Below are positions 2,619 through 12,586 of a stretch of 20,562 nt of DNA, piece by piece. Position 1 is the stretch's first letter; each line of letters opens with the position of its first letter. Under the pieces are notes generated by a model that saw only the letters and a program-made list of their open reading frames with translations, ran no database searches and was not told the origin of the DNA. The position numbers and the translations under genes were made by a program. The stretch comes from Chthonomonadales bacterium (GTDB lineage: Bacteria > Armatimonadota > Chthonomonadetes > Chthonomonadales > Chthonomonadaceae): contig JBBQPO010000086.1 in the NCBI GenBank assembly GCA_038217285.1, positions 1 to 20,562 of the forward strand. Reading direction: 5' to 3'.

Positions 2619-3749
2619 TTAGAGATAGAGCCGATACGGTGTGCTGCGAGCGGCGAACTGGGCCAGATCGGTCTGCCAGGAGGCGACCAGTTCCGCCGGC
2701 GAAGCGCCGTTTCGGAAAGAGGTGAAGGCGGCCCGATTGACGAGCAGACGGTCGTATCGGGCCGCCTCCCACGCCTCGGGATAGAGCGTGTGCAAGGCGG
2801 CAGCGACGGCAAGGCCGGTCTCCACCGGCACAAACCGGTCTCGTTGCGTCACGATGAGGTTGATGCCGCCGCAGGGCGTTCCCTCATGCACACGAAACGT
2901 CGGGGTAAAACGGATCGGCACGAAGCGCACACCGGGCAGATCCTGCGCGTTCAGATGCGCCGCCAGTTCGCGCTCCGCGATCCACGGCGCGCCCACCACT
3001 TCGAACGGCGTGTCTGTCCCACGCCCGACCGAGACATTGGTAAACTCCAGCAGGCCGATACCGGGATAGAGCAGGGCCTGCGTCAGAGAACGCATATTCG
3101 GGGAGGGATTGATCCAGGTCAACTCCGTCGCATCCCACCAATCGGCGAGCCTCCAGCCCTCGATCTCCACGATTTCCAGATCGAGATCGAGGCCCTTTTC
3201 TGCCGCGAACAGCCGCGCCATCTCTCCCACCGTCAGCCCGTGGCGGATCGGGATCGGATGGCAGGCGATAAAATCGAGGCGGTCGGCGTCGGCCAGCGGT
3301 CCCTCCGTCACCAGACCTCCGAGAGGGTTTGGACGATCCAGCACCACAAAGCGCAGCCCCTGTTCCGCAGCGGCTTCCATGCTGGTGAGCAGGGTGCTGA
3401 TATAGGTATAGAACCGCGTGCCGACGTCCTGAATATCGAAAACCAGGGTGTCCAGTCCCGTCAGTTGTTCGGGCGTCGGGCGGGTGCGTGTGCCGTACAG
3501 ACTGTAGACAGGCAACCCTGTCGCCTCGTCCGTGCCGTCCGGAACATGCTCATCCACCGCGCCCCGGATGCCATGTTCCGGCCCGAAGAGTGCCGCCATC
3601 TCTACGCCCGGCGCGGCATGCAGCAGGTCTGCAGTCGCCATGCCATAGGTGTCCAGCCCGGTATGGTTGGTAATCAATCCGACTCGCTGTCCGCGCAGCG
3701 CCGTAAACTCCTGTCCCACCAGCAGATCGATCCCGAGGCTTACCGCCAT
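2619..3749 (-). CDS. namZ: Exo-beta-N-acetylmuramidase NamZ family (DUF1343/YbbC)
   Basis: RVGLITNHTG, LFGPEHG, LPVYSLYG, FDIQDVGTRFYTY, VLDRPNP, RHGLTVGE, PSPNM, GRGTDTPFE, YRLY. Start at MAVSLG (3749) follows AGGAGAG; alternative start 3776. Confidence 0.9.
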   Translation of the reverse strand: MAVSLGIDLLVGQEFTALRGQRVGLITNHTGLDTYGMATADLLHAAPGVEMAALFGPEHGIRGAVDEHVPDGTDEATGLPVYSLYGTRTRPTPEQLTGLDTLVFDIQDVGTRFYTYISTLLTSMEAAAEQGLRFVVLDRPNPLGGLVTEGPLADADRLDFIACHPIPIRHGLTVGEMARLFAAEKGLDLDLEIVEIEGWRLADWWDATELTWINPSPNMRSLTQALLYPGIGLLEFTNVSVGRGTDTPFEVVGAPWIAERELAAHLNAQDLPGVRFVPIRFTPTFRVHEGTPCGGINLIVTQRDRFVPVETGLAVAAALHTLYPEAWEAARYDRLLVNRAAFTSFRNGASPAELVASWQTDLAQFAARSTPYRLYL

Positions 3750-3786
3750 CTCTCTCCTCTTTTCTACGACAAACATATACTTCCTG

Positions 3787-4095: not shown

Positions 4096-4101
4096 CGTAA
4101 A

Positions 4102-6144
4102 TTATGCTCCTACACTGTTTGCCGTGAGTATCAGATTGCCCTGGGCGCCTACAATCCCTTCCCAGCCGTCCGCGACGAATGTCGTCGCGTCCGCTTGAAG
4201 CACGATTGTAGGGCCGGGGAACCGTTGTCCGGCCGCCAGCGCTTCGCGAAGAAAGAGAAGGGCCTCCTGCCGACCCGTCTCGCCGTAGAGCGGTGTCATC
4301 CCGACAGGTTTGCCGGGAGCAGTGGGCAGATCTGCTATCGGAGCGGGGCGTGTGTTCCTCCCGATCATGACAACGCGCAGCGCCACGACTTCGACGGCCT
4401 CGCCCGGGTCGGAGTGACCGTAACGCGCCTTATGCGCCCAGTGGAAGGCGGCTCGAGTCGCGCGTATATCGTTCCCGCCCACGACCGGAACCCGGAGTTC
4501 GAACGCCTGTCCGCTGTAGCGCAGGTCGAGCAGGCGCGTGAGCTCCCACGGATCCGACGGGGATTCTTCCCGCGCGGCTATCGCGACGGCATGCGCTTCC
4601 AACCTTGCGAACTGCGATTCCAGCTCCGCCCGCGCTTCCGATGTCTCGGCCAGATTCATCGTGGCCGCGGAGAGGGGCAGCGCGAACTCTCGCCGGTTGT
4701 CCGCAAGCGCCAGGCCGAGCGCGGAGAATGCCCCTGGAAAACGGGGGATAATGACGGACCGCATTCCCAATGTCTCCGCCAGGGCGCAGGCATGCAGTCC
4801 GCCCGCCCCGCCGAAACTTAACAGCGCAAAATCGGCAGGGTCGTAGCCGCGCTCCACCGAAACATGCCGCAAGGCACGGGACATCGCCGCGTTCGCCACC
4901 TGAACCACTCCGAGCGCCGCCTGTTCGACGCCGATCCCTAACCGCGCCGCCAACTCCTCAAAATGCCGTCGAACCCGCGCCGCATCCAGCGCCATTCGAC
5001 CGCCGAGCCGGGCCTCGGCAGGCAGACGGCCCAGCAGCACATTCGCATCCGTGACCGTCAGCATTTCGCCCCGGCCGTAGGCTACCGGCCCCGGCTCCGC
5101 TCCCGCGCTTTGTGGTCCAACTCTCAGAACGCCCGCCGCATCGATCCGTGCCAATGAGCCGCCGCCTGCCCCCACGGTGTGAATGTCCAGCATCGGGGTG
5201 CGAATCGGAAACCCGGCGGTCTGCCCGGTCGTCACCGTCGGGCACTGCCCGTTCAGGACCAGGGCGACATCGGTGCTCGTCCCGCCCATATCGAAGGTGA
5301 GCAGACGTGCAAATCCTGCCTCCAAGCCGATTTTCCCTGCCGCGACGACGCCGCCCGCAGGGCCAGAGAGAACGGTCTTTATCGCCTGTTCCCCCGCCTC
5401 TCCCGCCGAGAGCGCGCCGCCGTTCGACTGCATGATTCGCAATACGGAGGCTCCCAGGGCGCTTGAACGCTCGGCCAGACGTTCCAGGTAGTGCGCCATG
5501 ACGGGAGCCACGAACGCATTCGCCACTGTCGTCGCAGACCGTTCGAACTCGCGTGGCTCCGGCGCGATGTCGCAGGAGAGCGAAACGCAGAGCCCGAGAG
5601 CCCGCGCCATTTCGCCGAGGCGCCGTTCGTGGCTCGCATTGAGATAGGAGAAGAGGAAGCAGACGGCCAGCGACTCGATTCCCTCTTGCGTCAGGCGTTC
5701 CAAAAGCGCGGCGGTGGCGGCCTCGTGCAGAGGGGTGATCACGTTGCCTCGCCTGTCCATCCGTTCCTCGACTTCGTAGCGTAGGGCCTGCGGCAAGAGC
5801 GGAGGTGTCCGGGTCGGATGAAAACTATAGAGATGGTCGCGGGTCTGACGTCCGATCTCCAGCACATCTCGAAAACCCTCGGTCGTGATCAAGGCCGTCC
5901 GCGCGCCGCGCCGCTCCAACAAGGCGTTTGTGGCAACCGTCGTCCCGTGTATCAGCGTAAAACGGTCGGCCAGCAGACCGTCATCCTGCGCCCGGCGCAG
6001 TCCCTGCAGAATACTCAGGGAAGGATCGGCAGGCGTAGAGGCCCACTTCTGCACAACGGCATGGCCAGCCAAATCGATAAATACAAAGTCGGTAAACGTT
6101 CCCCCGACATCCACCCCCACAACATCCGCCGCTATCCTTTTCAT
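4102..6144 (-). CDS. Hydantoinase/oxoprolinase family, ATP-binding A subunit (HyuA-like)
   Basis: GVDVGGTFTD, HGTTVATNALLER, TTEGFRDVLEIGRQ, REFERSAT, SGPAGG, DMGGTSTDV, GAGGGS, VGPQSAGAEPGP, FGGAGGLHA, RYSGQ. Confidence 0.93.
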   Translation of the reverse strand: MKRIAADVVGVDVGGTFTDFVFIDLAGHAVVQKWASTPADPSLSILQGLRRAQDDGLLADRFTLIHGTTVATNALLERRGARTALITTEGFRDVLEIGRQTRDHLYSFHPTRTPPLLPQALRYEVEERMDRRGNVITPLHEAATAALLERLTQEGIESLAVCFLFSYLNASHERRLGEMARALGLCVSLSCDIAPEPREFERSATTVANAFVAPVMAHYLERLAERSSALGASVLRIMQSNGGALSAGEAGEQAIKTVLSGPAGGVVAAGKIGLEAGFARLLTFDMGGTSTDVALVLNGQCPTVTTGQTAGFPIRTPMLDIHTVGAGGGSLARIDAAGVLRVGPQSAGAEPGPVAYGRGEMLTVTDANVLLGRLPAEARLGGRMALDAARVRRHFEELAARLGIGVEQAALGVVQVANAAMSRALRHVSVERGYDPADFALLSFGGAGGLHACALAETLGMRSVIIPRFPGAFSALGLALADNRREFALPLSAATMNLAETSEARAELESQFARLEAHAVAIAAREESPSDPWELTRLLDLRYSGQAFELRVPVVGGNDIRATRAAFHWAHKARYGHSDPGEAVEVVALRVVMIGRNTRPAPIADLPTAPGKPVGMTPLYGETGRQEALLFLREALAAGQRFPGPTIVLQADATTFVADGWEGIVGAQGNLILTANSVGA

Positions 6145-6451: not shown

Positions 6452-6751
6452 ATGGCACAAGAGCAGACAAAACCGCAAGAGACGGTTTCTAACGATAGCG
6501 ATGCCGATTCAGCCACAGGCGGACGGGGATGGCACGGGGACTCGGAGGGCCATGCGCGTGCTGGTCGCAAGGGCGGTACAATAGTATCCGCCAACCGGGA
6601 GCATATGGCGCAGATCGGGAGCAAGGGCGGCAAGACCGTCTCCAGCAACCGGGAGCACATGGCACAGATCGGCAGCAGGGGCGGAAAAGCACGTGGTCAG
6701 AAGTCGTCGTCCGCAGACCAGGAGGCCTCCCAACCAGGTGCGAAGGGCTGA
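6452..6751 (+). CDS. KGG-repeat general stress protein (hydrophilin-like, YciG/GsiB-like)
   Basis: GRGWHGDSEGHARAGRKGG and two NREHMAQIGS(K/R)GG repeats; RBS AAGGAG upstream. Confidence 0.88.
   Translation: MAQEQTKPQETVSNDSDADSATGGRGWHGDSEGHARAGRKGGTIVSANREHMAQIGSKGGKTVSSNREHMAQIGSRGGKARGQKSSSADQEASQPGAKG
6567..6684 (+). repeat. Intragenic 54-bp tandem repeat encoding KGG units
   Basis: 6592-6630 and 6646-6684 are near-identical (CAACCGGGAGCAYATGGCRCAGATCGGSAGCARGGGCGG); partial third copy at 6567-6576. Confidence 0.85.
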
Positions 6752-6756
6752 GTCTT

Positions 6757-6817
6757 CCTTCACGCGATTATCGTCCGGCAGCATGGCAGGAATTTGCCGT
6801 GCTGCCGGTGAAGGTTT
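6757..6817 (+). terminator. Strong hairpin after the KGG gene, probable terminator
   Basis: CCGGCAGCATGGCAG (6775-6789) GAAT TTGCCGTGCTGCCGG (6794-6808), with two G-U pairs that work on the + strand; outer CCTTCA/TGAAGG stem followed by only TTT. Confidence 0.55.
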
Positions 6818-6965
6818 GGGCAGCGGCGATCACGTCGCGGCATTTTATGGCGGATTGCCCGCTCTCCTCCTCTCCGCTGAGGCGGGAGCGAAGCAGTTTC
6901 CCGGGGAACGGCATTATGTTCATGCCGTTTTCCGACTGCCGTTAGAACCTGGAGCAATCGCAACA

Positions 6966-7544
6966 ATGGAAGCACTGAGAGTTCTTATCGCGGAAGATGA
7001 ACCCTTGACCCGTACGCTGATTCGAGCGCGGCTGGAAAAACTGGGACATACGGTCGTGGCGGAGGCCGGTGACGGCGTGCAGGCGATCGAAGCCGCACAC
7101 CTGCATCGCCCGGATGTGATCATCATGGATATCAAGATGCCCCTGATGGACGGTATCGAGGCGGCCCGCGCGATCCTCAGCGAGACGCCCTGCGCCATCC
7201 TTTTTCTAAGCGCCTTCAATGAAGCGGAACTGATAGAAGACGCCAGCGCGACAGGCGCACTGGCCTACCTGATGAAGCCGTTTCGCAAGGAGGATCTCGC
7301 GCCCGCCCTGCAGATGGCGGTCGGACGTTTCCGCCAGATCCATGATCAGAAAACCGAGATCGATGGTCTGCGCGAGACACTCGAAACCCGCAAACTGCTC
7401 GAACGTGCGAAGGGCATCCTCATGGATCGACATGGCATGAGTGAAGAGGAGGCGTTCAAACGCATCCACTTTCAGGCCCGGAATCAAAACAAAAAGATGC
7501 GTGAGATCGCCCAAAGCATCATTACCGCCGCCGACCTGATCTAA
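6966..7544 (+). CDS. ANTAR-domain response regulator (REC + ANTAR, PdtaR/EutV-like antiterminator)
   Basis: RVLIAEDE, PDVIIMDIKMPLMDG, FLSA, YLMKPF receiver motifs; coiled coil; ANTAR RKLLERAKGILM..HGMSEEEAFKRI...ARNQNKKMREIAQSII. Start placed at ATG 6966 after GGAG. Confidence 0.93.
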   Translation: MEALRVLIAEDEPLTRTLIRARLEKLGHTVVAEAGDGVQAIEAAHLHRPDVIIMDIKMPLMDGIEAARAILSETPCAILFLSAFNEAELIEDASATGALAYLMKPFRKEDLAPALQMAVGRFRQIHDQKTEIDGLRETLETRKLLERAKGILMDRHGMSEEEAFKRIHFQARNQNKKMREIAQSIITAADLI

Positions 7545-7545
7545 C

Positions 7546-8196
7546 ATGACGACCCCCTCTCCACGTCTGATCCTCGCGTCGACGTCTCCACGCCGTCGTG
7601 AGCTTTTAAGTCTCCTCGGGCTGCCCTTTACGGTCGTTCCCAGCGCCTACGAGGAGCCGCCCGCGCCGTCCACGCCTGTCGATCTGCCTGCCTTCGTTAT
7701 GGACCTGGCCCGCAACAAAGCCCGCGCGGTGGCGCAGGTCGAGCGGGACGCGCTGGTACTGGGGGCGGATACGTTGGTCAGTCTCTCCGTGGAGGCAGTC
7801 GGCGTCCCGCTCGGCAAACCGATCGACGCTGCCGATGCCTGCCGCATGCTGCGCCTCCTCGCCGGCGCCGTCCATACCGTTCATACCGGCGTAGCCCTCT
7901 TCCGCACCCTTCCCGATGGCAGCCTTGCCGAACCTCTCTGCACGGCCGTGCGGACGATGGTACGCTTTCGAACGCTCTCCGAGGCCATGATCGCCGACTA
8001 TGTGGCCACCGGGGAGCCGCTCGACAAAGCCGGAGCCTATGGCGCTCAGGGGTACGCCGCTCCTTTCATCGAAAGCTTCACAGGGGACTTCTACAACGTC
8101 GTCGGCCTTCCCCTCTGCGAAGTGGGCCGTCTGCTCGAGCGCAGCGGACTGCCCTGGTGGCAGCATCGGCAAAACATGCCTCCGCTTTCAGGCTGA
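7546..8196 (+). CDS. maf: Maf family nucleoside triphosphate pyrophosphatase, YhdE subtype
   Basis: LILASTSPRRRELL, LARNKA, LGADT, GKP, DKAGAYGAQG, NVVGLP; SPRR, DT and Q fit the YhdE rather than YceF subtype. Confidence 0.93.
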   Translation: MTTPSPRLILASTSPRRRELLSLLGLPFTVVPSAYEEPPAPSTPVDLPAFVMDLARNKARAVAQVERDALVLGADTLVSLSVEAVGVPLGKPIDAADACRMLRLLAGAVHTVHTGVALFRTLPDGSLAEPLCTAVRTMVRFRTLSEAMIADYVATGEPLDKAGAYGAQGYAAPFIESFTGDFYNVVGLPLCEVGRLLERSGLPWWQHRQNMPPLSG

Positions 8197-8237
8197 TCCC
8201 AACGGGACGATCGTGGTTAATTATTTTTTCGTTTCAC

Positions 8238-8267
8238 TTGACAAATGGGGAACAAACACAATATAAT
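8238..8267 (+). promoter_or_regulatory. Consensus sigma70-type promoter
   Basis: TTGACA (8238-8243), 18-bp spacer, TATAAT (8262-8267), with an AT-rich tract upstream. Confidence 0.75.
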
Positions 8268-8288
8268 GCAAGTCAGATAGGTTTAATA

Positions 8289-8405
8289 GAGCCATGTTCG
8301 CTCGTGTGTGGCAATGATGCCCTGTAAGTGGTCCTTTTCGCATCTTGGATAGTCAAGAGGTCAGGTTCGGAAACCTGGGGATAACATACAGGGCTTTTTG
8401 TTTTT
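8289..8405 (+). promoter_or_regulatory. Structured leader or sRNA candidate with attenuator-like architecture
   Basis: Hairpins 8289-8303 and 8310-8321; stem GCCCTGTA (8319-8326)/TACAGGGC (8387-8394) enclosing hairpins 8343-8358 and 8362-8377; followed by TTTTTGTTTTT. Confidence 0.45.
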
Positions 8406-8629
8406 GGATACTGCGGAATGCTATCTGTAGCTTTTCGTAAGCGTCCATTCGAGAATACAAACGCTACATTCCAATACATGATCTGCCTAGACCAACAGCA
8501 GGAGGTGTCTACCCAAGCAAGCTAACAATGCCATCTTCGCTTTTTTCGGTTCCACACTGTTTTGGGGCAAGGGAGCATCGGCTCCATCTTTTTCTTTTCT
8601 GACTTCGGTCATCGGGAGGGATTTTAAAT

Positions 8630-9523
8630 ATGAATCGTATCACACCGCGAGGCGGGCGTCGCTCCGCCTTCACGCTTATCGAACTTCTCGTCGTCATCGC
8701 CATTATCGCTATTCTGGCCGCGATCCTGTTCCCCGTTTTCGCTCAGGCCCGCGAGAAAGCTCGCGCCATCTCCTGCATCTCCAACGAAAAGCAGATTGGC
8801 ACCGCCACTATGATGTACGTGCAGGACTACGATGAAACCCTGCCGATGTACATTGCGTTCACCGGTGGACGCATCACGAACCCGATTGACTCCACCGACA
8901 TCGGTCCGTGGCCCATGTGGCAGGCAGCCCTCTATCCCTACACGAAAAGCTGGGATATCTACAACTGTCCCAGTGACGCTTACAAGAAGACGACTTCGCG
9001 GGATCGGTACTACTACTTGAGCTACGGCTACAACAATGGTTACCTCAGTACGTTTGGCACAGACGCAAACGGGAGGCAGCAGTGGCCCGGTCGCAATATT
9101 GCGAGCATCGTTCGCCCGGCGCAGATCGTCGCCTTTGCTGATGGCGGCGGCAAAGACCCGGCTACCACCCGATACTACGGCGGCTCGATTGTCGAAGCTC
9201 CCGATGCTTACCCCAGCACCGAAACCTGGTACTATACCGGAAGTGGCAGCGTAGGGTGGGGTTCCGATGGCGGAAGCCTCTGCAACGACAAATGGGGTAT
9301 CACCGGATGCTTCGCGCCGCGCCACAACGAGGGCGGCAATCTGGTATTCTGCGACGGACACGCCAAGTTCCTGAAGACGAATGCCGCTGCCGCAGGAACC
9401 ACGTTTAGCCCGACGACTCCCACCGCCAGTGTCTGCGTCAAGGACTACAGCCAGTATCTGTGGGATCCTCGGTTCGACTCGGGCCAGGAGTATCATAGCG
9501 ACGGCAGCCGAAGTTGCCCGTAA
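8630..9523 (+). CDS. Prepilin-type N-terminal cleavage/methylation protein with DUF1559 and H-X9-DG motif
   Basis: [81 protein letters not shown]. Confidence 0.93.
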
Positions 9524-9552
9524 CTCCTAATCACACCTTCAGAGGACCAGAC

Positions 9553-9735
9553 ATGAAATCACTCGCTCGCTTGTGCGCGGTGCTGCTATTCGGAATGATC
9601 TGCAGCTCTCTCTATGGATGCAATGGTCAATCGGAGAGCAAGACCATTGCAGCGCCTTCCACCGGTTCTTCCGACGCTACGACCACGAAACCGGTAGGTG
9701 GAAAGAAGGCTGCGTTGGAGCCACCGGGGCCGTAG
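9553..9735 (+). CDS. Small (60 aa) predicted lipoprotein
   Basis: RBS GAGGA; MKSLARLCAVLLFGMICSSLYG|C lipobox-like signal followed by a low-complexity Ser/Thr/Pro-rich tail. Confidence 0.7.
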   Translation: MKSLARLCAVLLFGMICSSLYGCNGQSESKTIAAPSTGSSDATTTKPVGGKKAALEPPGP

Positions 9736-9764
9736 TTTCTATCTAGCGGTCGTCTACTGCAACG

Positions 9765-9797
9765 AGGGGCGCGAGATAGCAAATATCTCGCGCCCCT
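9765..9797. terminator. Perfect 14-bp hairpin after the lipoprotein gene, abutting the tRNA promoter
   Basis: AGGGGCGCGAGATA GCAAA TATCTCGCGCCCCT; the U-tract is poor. Confidence 0.55.
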
Positions 9798-9825
9798 TGA
9801 CGTACACAGCGTTTTCCGGTACAAT
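9797..9825 (+). promoter_or_regulatory. sigma70-type promoter of the tRNA cluster
   Basis: TTGACG (9797-9802), 17 bp, TACAAT (9820-9825), then a GC-rich segment; about 40 bp before the first tRNA. Confidence 0.8.
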
Positions 9826-9863
9826 AGCCGTGCTTCAAGCGTAGTCTCCTGGAGCCATACCGC

Positions 9864-9936
9864 GCGCCCATAGCTCAGTGGATAGAGCGACAGGTTGCGG
9901 ACCTGTAGGCCGGGGGTCCGAGTCCCTCTGGGCGCA
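9864..9936 (+). tRNA. tRNA-Arg(GCG)
   Basis: Acceptor GCGCCCA/TGGGCGC, D arm GCTC-AGTGGATA-GAGC (A20), anticodon arm ACAGG-TTGCGGA-CCTGT, T arm GGGGG-TCCGAGT-CCCTC; no encoded CCA. Confidence 0.92.
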
Positions 9937-10045
9937 TGATCGTACCGCTTTAGAAACGCCCTTCCTGCTTCGGCAGCAGGGCGTTTCCCATGCAGCACCC
10001 GGTTACTTCCGGGCTGTTTGCTGGTTTGCGCGTCTGTCGATTTGT

Positions 10046-10118
10046 GGGGTTGTAGCTCAGTGGATAGAGCGCCTCCGTCCTAAGGAGGGCGTCGGGGGTC
10101 CGATTCCCTCCAACCCCA
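10046..10118 (+). tRNA. tRNA-Arg(CCT)
   Basis: Acceptor GGGGTTG/CAACCCC, same D arm, anticodon arm CCTCC-GTCCTAA-GGAGG, T arm GGGGG-TCCGATT-CCCTC; no encoded CCA. Confidence 0.9.
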
Positions 10119-10121
10119 TAC

Positions 10122-10206
10122 GGAGAGGTGTCCGAGTGGCTGATGGTGCGGCTCTCGAAAAGCCGTGAGGCGCAAGTCTCCGTGGGTTCGACTCCCACCC
10201 TCTCCG
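10122..10206 (+). tRNA. tRNA-Ser(CGA)
   Basis: Acceptor GGAGAGG/CCTCTCC, anticodon arm CGGCT-CTCGAAA-AGCCG, long variable arm GAGGC-GCAA-GTCTC, T arm GTGGG-TTCGACT-CCCAC, discriminator G; no encoded CCA. Confidence 0.95.
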
Positions 10207-10310
10207 TCCCCTGTTTACCTGCGCGTACCGCTTTGCGGAATAGGTCTGCGGCCTGCGCGCAGTCGTCTCCCCGGCTCTCCTGGCAGAATGGCCGAGAGTC
10301 TATGCAGACA

Positions 10311-10349
10311 GACGCCCCGGTGAGAAAATGATTTTCTCACCGGGGCGTC
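10311..10349. terminator. Perfect 19-bp inverted repeat between the tRNA cluster and the convergent gene
   Basis: GACGCCCCGGTGAGAAAAT G ATTTTCTCACCGGGGCGTC; no flanking U-tract, so the terminator role is inferred from position only. Confidence 0.55.
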
Positions 10350-10484: not shown

Positions 10485-11147
10485 TCAGTTCTGTGCGTAC
10501 TTGTTCAGTTCATTGCAGTTCACCACACTCATGGGTGTCGCATCACTACCGTTCAGCACCATGCGCACTTCAGAGGGGGCGGCGATTCCAGGGCACAGCA
10601 CTTTCCAACTCAGCCGCCATGTGATCCCGTCTCGGTTGCGCTGGGGTTGCTGTGCCAGTACGATCCTGGTGCCTTTCGGCACCATCTGCAGGTCTTTCAG
10701 ATGTCGTATTGCCTCCTCCAGAGCATCGCTTGGAGAGGAGAGGGTTGGCACACCGGTGGAGCGGGACGAGGAGGTCGTTCCGTCAGAAAAAAGACTCTGT
10801 ACATTCCCAGTCACATCGTTAAAGATCAAGGTGTAGGAGTGCGATCCTACCAGGCAATCGACCACCCATAGGCGCCGCTCTCTACGCGGCATCTCCTTAT
10901 CGAGCTTCTCGATGACGAACTCCGGTTCCCCGATAATGGGGTTGGCCCCACCCAGCGAGAGACCGATACGCGTGGCCCGCTGTTTGAGATCTTGCGACTG
11001 CATGCGGGCCTTCGGCCTTGCCGACGCAATCATGGTATGATGGGGATACAGACAGAGGACGGGAAGCGCCAACAGAGACGCCAACGCCAACCCGATCACG
11101 GTCTTCCTACAACCTTCCGTACTTATCCGATGAAGTCGTTTTTTCAT
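10485..11147 (-). CDS. Hypothetical exported or membrane-anchored protein, possibly with two PepSY-like modules
   Basis: RBS GAGGAG; basic N-terminus plus hydrophobic VIGLALASLLALPVLCLY; segments LWVVD..YTLIFNDVTGNV and SPSDALEEAIRHL..TWRLSW..VRMVLNGSDATP. Confidence 0.65.
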   Translation of the reverse strand: MKKRLHRISTEGCRKTVIGLALASLLALPVLCLYPHHTMIASARPKARMQSQDLKQRATRIGLSLGGANPIIGEPEFVIEKLDKEMPRRERRLWVVDCLVGSHSYTLIFNDVTGNVQSLFSDGTTSSSRSTGVPTLSSPSDALEEAIRHLKDLQMVPKGTRIVLAQQPQRNRDGITWRLSWKVLCPGIAAPSEVRMVLNGSDATPMSVVNCNELNKYAQN

Positions 11148-12524: not shown

Positions 12525-12586
12525 GACGGCACGGCCAGCGCTTAAATCGGGACGGCGCGGCCAGCGCTTAAATCGGGAAGGCGCGG
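12525..12586. repeat. 26-bp tandem direct repeat duplicating the 3' end of the transporter gene
   Basis: GACGGCACGGCCAGCGCTTAAATCGG (12525-12550), GACGGCGCGGCCAGCGCTTAAATCGG (12551-12576), partial GAAGGCGCGG (12577-12586). Confidence 0.85.

Follow-up and report, generated by a model that had tools for sequence, protein, structure and literature searches.

Leaders controlled by ANTAR proteins have been described for eutP, eutG, eutS and eutA of E. faecalis, nasF of K. oxytoca and amiE of P. aeruginosa (excerpts of PMC3369931). According to these excerpts, an ANTAR target consists of two tandem hairpins of at least 3 bp, P1 and P2, with hexaloops whose first and fourth bases are A and G (A1/G4), and P2 lies over the 5′ side of a terminator; the linker in eut sites is 5-12 nt long. 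Excerpts of PMC8934654 state that EutV antitermination is lost if the loops are joined by a longer linker, that the ANTAR dimer touches one hexaloop at a time, and that the minimal binding motif is redefined as a single hexaloop. Here we describe an RNA element at 8238-8405 of a 20,562-nt stretch of DNA from a Chthonomonadales bacterium (the entire stretch is referred to as the window), located upstream of a gene for a pilin-like DUF1559 protein. A first-pass annotation of this DNA had suggested a tandem-hairpin ANTAR target at the site. The element is an unclassified attenuator-type leader that is new and not in Rfam. On balance we favor a cis-acting leader with conditional termination.

The leader resembles the ANTAR dual-hexaloop leaders in having an A1/G4 hexaloop over the 5′ side of a terminator, an AAUGAU loop closed by a GC pair as in published P2 sites, and a regulator gene beside the target. 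Unlike these leaders, it is devoid of a P1 hexaloop, its terminator is a 76-nt Y instead of a simple hairpin, its host belongs to the Armatimonadota, and the target is a DUF1559 pilin-like gene rather than a nitrogen or ethanolamine gene.

Promoter, branched terminator and the competing hairpin

Related loci were collected by one search of a genome collection with the protein product of maf, the gene upstream of the element. The search returned 36 loci; the top relatives are metagenome-assembled genomes labelled Chthonomonadaceae or Chthonomonadales (Armatimonadota), and three of them are close (L001, 88%; L002, 81%; L003, 80%). The L003 sequence stops within maf and L002 extends 317 nt past it. 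In L001 the whole region is present, in the gene order of the window, and all comparison at the level of the element is made between these two sequences. The RNA block is 82% identical between them, compared with 74-77% for the surrounding, mostly coding DNA (blastn blocks).

A sigma-70-type promoter that matches the consensus at 12 of 12 positions is present at 8238-8267 of the plus strand (TTGACA at 8238-8243, TATAAT at 8262-8267, 18-nt spacer), preceded by an A/T-rich stretch. In L001, the homologous position (3726-3754) has a 12/12 promoter too, whose spacer is 17 nt long. The consensus promoter of the first-pass annotation is upheld. Only one other promoter-like site was found in 7500-10300 (shuffle mean for the interval, 1.1). 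From the spacing, we infer that transcription starts at about 8274-8275.

Downstream of the start, predicted folds of both the window and L001 contain a Y-shaped terminator body of 76 nt, T1 (8319-8394, plus strand). Its outer stem is formed by GCCCTGTA (8319-8326) and TACAGGGC (8387-8394), which pair over 8 bp with GCCC/GGGC at the base; inside are a second stem (8331-8335/8378-8382), hairpin A (8343-8358) and hairpin B (8362-8377). Directly after the outer stem comes the run TTTTTGTTTTT (8395-8405, 10 U in 11 nt), that is, the U-tract UUUUUGUUUUU (U5GU5), with all 11 bases identical in L001. A stem enclosing two hairpins and followed by a U-run had been annotated at this very place. The minimum free energy (MFE) of the plus-strand RNA 8270-8405 is -42 kcal/mol (z = -2.46), a value equalled by 4 of 200 shuffles, and in the equilibrium ensemble the outer stem forms with a pair probability of 0.96-1.0. 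When folded alone, the L001 RNA adopts the same Y architecture, with an outer stem of 7 bp and two A residues before the U-run. Three one-sided changes within the Y keep pairing (inner stem, U-G to U-A; hairpin A, G-U to A-U; hairpin B, U-A to U-G), and hairpin B withstands an indel between the two sequences.

As in intrinsic terminators, a G+C-rich stem is directly followed by a U-run, in L001 as well as in the window; the simple short-loop hairpin of such terminators is replaced by a stem that encloses 60 nt with two hairpins. Because the GC-rich 8-bp closing stem abuts U5GU5, T1 should act as an intrinsic terminator. We are highly confident that both the promoter and the terminator are real. 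The minus strand of the element folds better than the plus strand (z = -4.05); a minus-strand reading was rejected since the promoter, the U-run and the G-U pairs are compatible with the plus strand alone. A spurious antisense open reading frame (ORF; 8273-8479, minus strand) used as a protein-database query had no homologue. CsrA-type GGA loops, present in both hairpin loops of the window, were also dismissed, as by eye they are lost in L001.

P2 (GGC-AAUGAU-GCC, 8310-8321, plus strand) is a hairpin with an ANTAR-type A1/G4 hexaloop whose 3′ arm is made of the first 3 nt of the terminator stem, GCC at 8319-8321. P2 is identical in L001 and is part of a 21-nt perfect run, TGTGGCAATGATGCCCTGTAA, which spans the linker, P2 and the terminator arm. 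The overlap of an ANTAR-type hexaloop with the terminator arm, a claim of the first-pass annotation, was borne out: with P2 forced, the fold of the window RNA rises from -42.0 to -34.7 kcal/mol and that of L001 from -33.1 to -26.1, a cost of about 7 kcal/mol in both genomes, and the two folds compete. Forced P2 removes three G/C pairs adjoining the U-run. Loss of the G/C pairs proximal to a U-run should cripple termination.

The letters of P2 are exactly those of a published P2, in the predicted ANTAR substrate hit 032 (PMC3369931, Fig. S2). Nine of the 12 specified positions of the 13-nt eut consensus AGCAANGRRGCUY (PMC3369931) are matched, and two of the three mismatches jointly keep the outer pair as G-C. 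P2 also conforms to the consensus RRGY-AAHGDV-GCYY, but the U at loop position 6 falls outside V.

The element belongs to no Rfam 15 family, either in the window region or in L001. At the gathering threshold, the whole window gave three tRNAs and nothing else. With E values up to 10 allowed, 8150-8700 gave two chance-level matches (E = 7.7 and 8.7; best scores, 13.8 and 13.3 bits, with cut-offs of 100 and 40, respectively), and L001 3640-4110 gave two weak unrelated matches that differ from those of the window. A covariance model built from the window and L001 (R1) was searched over the window and the 36 loci (566 kb); its two matches were the training sequences, and no further copy was found there, nor any before another gene.

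Taken together, these features suggest the following mechanism. Transcription from the perfect sigma-70 promoter would begin at about 8275, and about 45 nt downstream of the start the RNA would fold into the 76-nt Y. By default, most transcripts would stop near 8400 to yield an abundant RNA of about 125 nt, and expression of the DUF1559 gene would then depend on read-through. P2 is the only conserved element positioned to block T1; were it held closed, the terminator stem would lack the three G/C pairs beside the U-run. The likeliest factor to hold P2 would be a PdtaR-like REC-ANTAR response regulator encoded two genes upstream. Binding of P2 by this regulator is a plausible prediction, and we tentatively propose the regulator as the effector. 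Antitermination by P2 alone would be new.

The missing first hairpin

The first-pass annotation had described two small hairpins, and both are found at their annotated positions. P2 stands; the first one, P1 (GAGC-CAUGUUC-GCUC, 8289-8303, plus strand, -4.4 kcal/mol alone), finds no support as a functional hairpin. P1 is a minor conformer because it is outcompeted by a 5′ hairpin, SL1 (8277-8297, plus strand), which is itself weak and appears in both MFE and centroid folds; by eye, SL1 has one compensatory pair (U-A to G-C) and two broken ones in L001, which lends it little support. Two tandem stem-loops of at least 3 bp are not present as such (P2 has 3 bp; P1 has 4 bp but is minor and unconserved), the element does not fit the published definition of an ANTAR target, and the tandem-hairpin site is not supported. 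A scan of the minus strand with a descriptor of canonical dual-hexaloop sites gave one site, inside maf, with 2.66 expected. A hairpin with the P1-like loop UAUGUUC upstream of the ANTAR gene (~6909-6931) was set aside as a coincidence, being unconserved in L001-L003. Since P1 does not belong to the switch, any ANTAR site here would be non-canonical, with a single hexaloop.

Many observations weigh against control by an ANTAR protein, or against the leader as drawn above. In context, P1 has a pair probability of 2-4%, only one of its four pairs is kept in L001, and instead of an A1/G4 hexaloop it has a 7-nt loop that begins with C; the descriptor scan found no canonical dual-hexaloop site on the plus strand of the window. 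In the case of EutV, deletion of P1 or a change of the linker abolishes the effect (excerpts of PMC3369931 and PMC8934654), and the table of PMC12591593 gives dual hairpins for all four ANTAR systems, including the Rv1626 target. P2 itself has a pair probability of 0.83 in the nascent RNA of the window versus 0.16 in that of L001. The U at loop position 6 lets A1 and U6 pair, which produces a 4-bp stem with a tetraloop that is better by 0.7 kcal/mol. There is no enrichment of A1/G4 hexaloops on stems of 3 bp or more: both strands contain 83 such hairpins, compared with 95.5 ± 10.3 in shuffles. The motif GCAANGNNGC has six matches on both strands of the window, with 5.13 expected. Because hairpins of this class are common, P2 alone is weak evidence. 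Between the window and L001 the Y has no double-compensatory pair, and its support therefore comes from independent folding and conservation, not from covariation. A branched terminator is atypical, and a terminator scan with loops of 3-8 nt does not score T1. L002 has the same ANTAR-maf pair and promoter, followed by a different 95-nt leader and a different ORF up to the contig end. A mini-ORF (see below) accounts no less well for the conservation of the blocks ATGTTCGC and TGTGGCAATGA. Finally, the comparison has a two-sequence basis.

A second occurrence of the motif offers no relief. Three GCAANGNNGC matches are on the plus strand, and two of these lie within the 355-nt leader, namely P2 and GCAAGGGAGC at 8567. 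The latter belongs to a second hexaloop hairpin (8562-8585, plus strand; loop AAGGGA, 8569-8574) that is closed by two Watson-Crick pairs only. It shares bases with the 5′ arm of another hairpin, GGAGC-AUCG-GCUCC (8572-8585), which has a U/C-rich run behind it and was scored as terminator-like. The equivalent position of L001 has a hairpin and a T-run as well, but with the hexaloop GCUUUU; the motif is not kept, a further point against ANTAR control. In addition, a third A1/G4 mini-hairpin, UGA-AUCGUA-UCA, was noticed on the DUF1559 start codon (8631-8642); by eye it is absent in L001. It recalls the actinobacterial ANTAR RNAs that, in the excerpted text of bioRxiv 660928, overlap ORF start sites and repress translation rather than act at terminators.

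As a whole, the proposal of a P1-less, single-hexaloop ANTAR switch on a branched terminator, gating a strongly promoted and fast-diverging DUF1559 pilin-like gene in the Armatimonadota, must be regarded as speculative and somewhat unlikely in all its parts at once.

A probable read-through leader and alternative explanations

Conserved structure continues past the U-tract. HP3 (8406-8446, plus strand), a hairpin that starts right after it, is folded by both sequences alone. Its 11 pairs are kept in both (22 of 22 cells paired), four of them having changed on both sides and none being broken; slid controls gave no double-sided changes, with 41-64% paired. Folded alone, HP3 has z = -3.8 in the window and -1.2 in L001. 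Possibly it serves in mRNA stability, processing or pausing. Farther downstream, CUUUUCU (8594-8600) pairs with GGGAGGG (8614-8620) in a helix (8594-8620, plus strand) that sequesters the Shine-Dalgarno sequence of the DUF1559 gene and is found in both sequences folded alone and in their consensus fold. It has a GAC-UUCG-GUC cap and mostly G-U pairs, and we take it to resemble a fourU-type thermometer or a translational lock. Alifold suggested that CAUGUU pairs over a long range with the start region of the DUF1559 gene; this pairing was set aside, as it is AU-rich and has 6 bp only.

Could the RNA be a free-standing small RNA (sRNA) gene? In this case a stable RNA of about 125 nt would act in trans through the conserved single strand UGUGGCAAUGAU, and the DUF1559 gene would have its own unrecognized promoter. 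The element does have a perfect promoter of its own, a strong terminator and a conserved U-run, and the RNA is 82% identical between the two genomes, compared with 38% for the downstream protein; UGUGGCAAUGAU lies between the 5′ hairpin and the terminator and is conserved and unpaired in the terminated fold. Yet compensated structure goes on past the U-run up to the Shine-Dalgarno sequence, neither the window nor L001 has a promoter-like site scoring 9/12 or more from T1 to the start codon, no sigma-54 promoter was seen by eye between T1 and the DUF1559 gene, and a search of the 20-kb window for trans targets with up to two mismatches gave none besides the site itself. Nor does the RNA make a good sponge for an ANTAR protein. 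It is similar to EutX/Rli55, the sRNA that sequesters EutV (excerpts of PMC8934654), in being short, with its own promoter and an ANTAR-type hexaloop; unlike EutX/Rli55, it has no riboswitch domain, and its hexaloop is dissolved once transcription has terminated. Sequestration of the EutV type is unlikely because the probability of P2 in the terminated RNA is 0. Hence the fallback of the first-pass annotation, a new sRNA of about 130 nt, keeps its promoter and terminator while the conserved downstream structure argues for a leader, and we consider an sRNA gene rather improbable. A read-through leader is favored over it because of HP3, the sequestered Shine-Dalgarno sequence and the lack of a second promoter. 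More specifically, the interval probably forms the front of a 5′ leader of about 355 nt that serves a two-gene unit, the DUF1559 pilin-like gene and a small ORF read as a lipoprotein.

Control of such a leader could also be exerted by ribosomes. Leader-peptide attenuators are known from trp, pyrBI and antibiotic-sensing leaders, and in common with them the window has a tiny ORF that ends beside the terminator in a 5′ leader. This mini-ORF (8294-8317, plus strand) encodes MFARVWQ* in seven codons, and its UGA stop falls within the loop of P2, 1 nt ahead of the arm of the terminator. A ribosome pausing at the UGA, or at a UGG two codons earlier, would cover the 5′ arm of the terminator and prevent T1, and the geometry of a ribosome footprint fits. 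In L001 the ORF is kept as MFAMWQ* (six codons) through an in-frame 3-nt indel and a synonymous change of GCT to GCC, and identity between the two genomes jumps at the ATG, from 6 of 13 bases just upstream of it to a near-perfect match from the ATG on. However, the mini-ORF has no Shine-Dalgarno sequence in either genome, where the DUF1559 gene has GGGAGGG, and its ATG is partly paired in SL1. An ORF this short is expected by chance, and the coding test is informed by three differences only. Unlike the known attenuators, the window also lacks an alternative antiterminator helix and a string of regulatory codons. Ribosome-mediated attenuation is therefore an unlikely explanation in our view. 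Little more than a slight chance is given to a riboswitch or an attenuator that responds to another factor, in which the Y or the 5′ 45 nt would bind a small molecule or a non-ANTAR protein and so tune T1. In favor of this idea, the leader is structured and conserved, includes a terminator and has no credible Rfam match, and the internal loop between the stems is partly conserved. But between the window and L001 the junction of the Y is altered by a 5-nt indel, neither hairpin loop is the same, and the 5′ 45 nt have no consistently conserved fold, which is not what one would look for in a ligand pocket. The variable junction and loops also weaken the riboswitch fallback of the first-pass annotation. 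The remaining explanation dispenses with a switch: T1 would simply end the ANTAR-maf operon and, being leaky, would constitutively damp a very strong promoter, and the P2 likeness would be due to chance. Indeed, the scan scored no other terminator between the maf stop codon (8196) and T1, A1/G4 mini-hairpins with stems of 3 bp or more have a density of 1.75 per kb (36 on the plus strand of the window), and P1 is absent. This reading leaves without a role the 12 perfectly conserved nt upstream of the T1 stem, which a terminator does not need; moreover, the chance of an A1/G4 hairpin overlapping a given terminator arm is about 1% by our own estimate, and P2 exactly matches a published one. We therefore hold the absence of any switch to be very unlikely.

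Gene neighborhood, other features and significance

The candidate effector is a REC-ANTAR response regulator of 192 amino acids (6966-7544, plus strand; Pfam PF00072 and PF03861), whose start was placed at 6966 by alignment to L001 (93% identity). The first-pass annotation was right in placing an ANTAR regulator two genes upstream of the DUF1559 gene, with maf in between (7546-8196, plus strand; Pfam PF02545). Since maf begins 1 nt past the ANTAR stop codon, the two genes probably form one operon. The ANTAR gene is beside maf in all four close genomes (the window, L001, L002 and L003). In two more distant Armatimonadetes genomes maf is flanked by an ABC1 kinase gene and mreB-mreC, and no ANTAR gene was found among the flanking ORFs scanned there.

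The solved structures nearest to the regulator are 1s8n, a putative antiterminator (E = 1.9e-50), and 6wsh, a response regulator (E = 7.9e-40), both aligning end to end. 1s8n is M. tuberculosis Rv1626/PdtaR and 6wsh is EutV; the likeness of the window regulator to Rv1626/PdtaR and EutV concerns the protein only. No kinase gene was seen among the neighbors of the regulator, a setting like that of PdtaR. At the position of the EutV tyrosine, the window regulator has Phe, as does 1s8n (alignment; numbering by our own count). The excerpts of PMC8934654 likewise give Rv1626 as 1S8N.

The presumed regulated gene (8630-9523, plus strand) encodes a protein with a prepilin-type N-methylation motif (Pfam PF07963) and a DUF1559 domain (PF07596); it is the only DUF1559 gene in the window, and its L001 homologue is at 4100-4999. 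The two proteins are 38% identical, with nearly all identity in the first ~70 residues, and DNA similarity ends at 8838, whereas identity of the neighbors is 88-93%. The G+C content of the gene is 0.55-0.61 versus 0.62-0.70 for the flanking genes. It looks as if promoter, leader and N terminus are conserved whereas the C-terminal domain has been replaced or diverges fast, a pattern known from type IV pilins. That the RNA is so much more conserved than the protein is consistent with an independent role for the element, and likewise with a conserved site from which a fast-changing pilin-like protein is expressed. In the L002 stretch behind ANTAR-maf (10770-10959), a near-identical strong promoter is seen by eye (TTGACA-17-TATAAT with an A-rich spacer). 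The promoter linked to ANTAR-maf may be a conserved expression site with exchangeable cargo. The DUF1559 gene is followed by a small ORF of 60 amino acids (9553-9735, plus strand) without a Pfam match, which by eye alone resembles a lipoprotein (LYGC), then by a GC-rich 31-nt hairpin (9766-9796) and, beyond it, a tRNA cluster.

Several other features of the window were observed. At 6452-6751 there is a 99-amino-acid ORF with a good Shine-Dalgarno sequence and a 54-nt tandem repeat (6567-6674, 80% identical) that encodes KGG...NREHMAQIGS units; the ORF has no Pfam match at E up to 0.01, and we take it to be akin to KGG-repeat general stress proteins. Between this ORF and the ANTAR gene lies a long hairpin, GGCAGCAUGGCA-GGAAUU-UGCCGUGCUGCC (6790-6825), largely kept in L001 and partly in L003, which might serve the ANTAR-maf operon as a terminator or as a leader element. 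Downstream of a tRNA-Ser gene, two perfect 19-nt inverted repeat arms flank a 1-nt spacer (10311-10349) and probably form a terminator. Two tandem copies of a 26-nt unit, 96% identical (12525-12576), lie where the convergent genes for pseudouridine synthase and DUF6785 leave a short gap.

DUF1559 is among the most expanded and least understood families of the Planctomycetota, Verrucomicrobiota and Armatimonadota. Among 15 listed of 2,490 results, our literature search on the topic showed no paper with the term DUF1559, though the term was not required in the search and the result is no proof of a gap. Without the ANTAR link, the element would be an unclassified conserved leader or sRNA of a poorly studied lineage, of modest value for annotation. 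If the link is true, it would be a natural case of single-hexaloop antitermination, contrary to the two-hairpin requirement of EutV, and ANTAR targets could be sought with a broader pattern that admits a single hexaloop on a branched terminator, single-hexaloop binding having been suggested in the excerpted text of PMC8934654. ANTAR regulation would then reach a phylum and a gene class outside the characterized systems in the PMC12591593 table, and two-component RNA antitermination would be linked for the first time to the DUF1559 family. A defined leader with a testable on/off element and a candidate regulator nearby would provide a first experimental handle on the expression of a DUF1559 gene.

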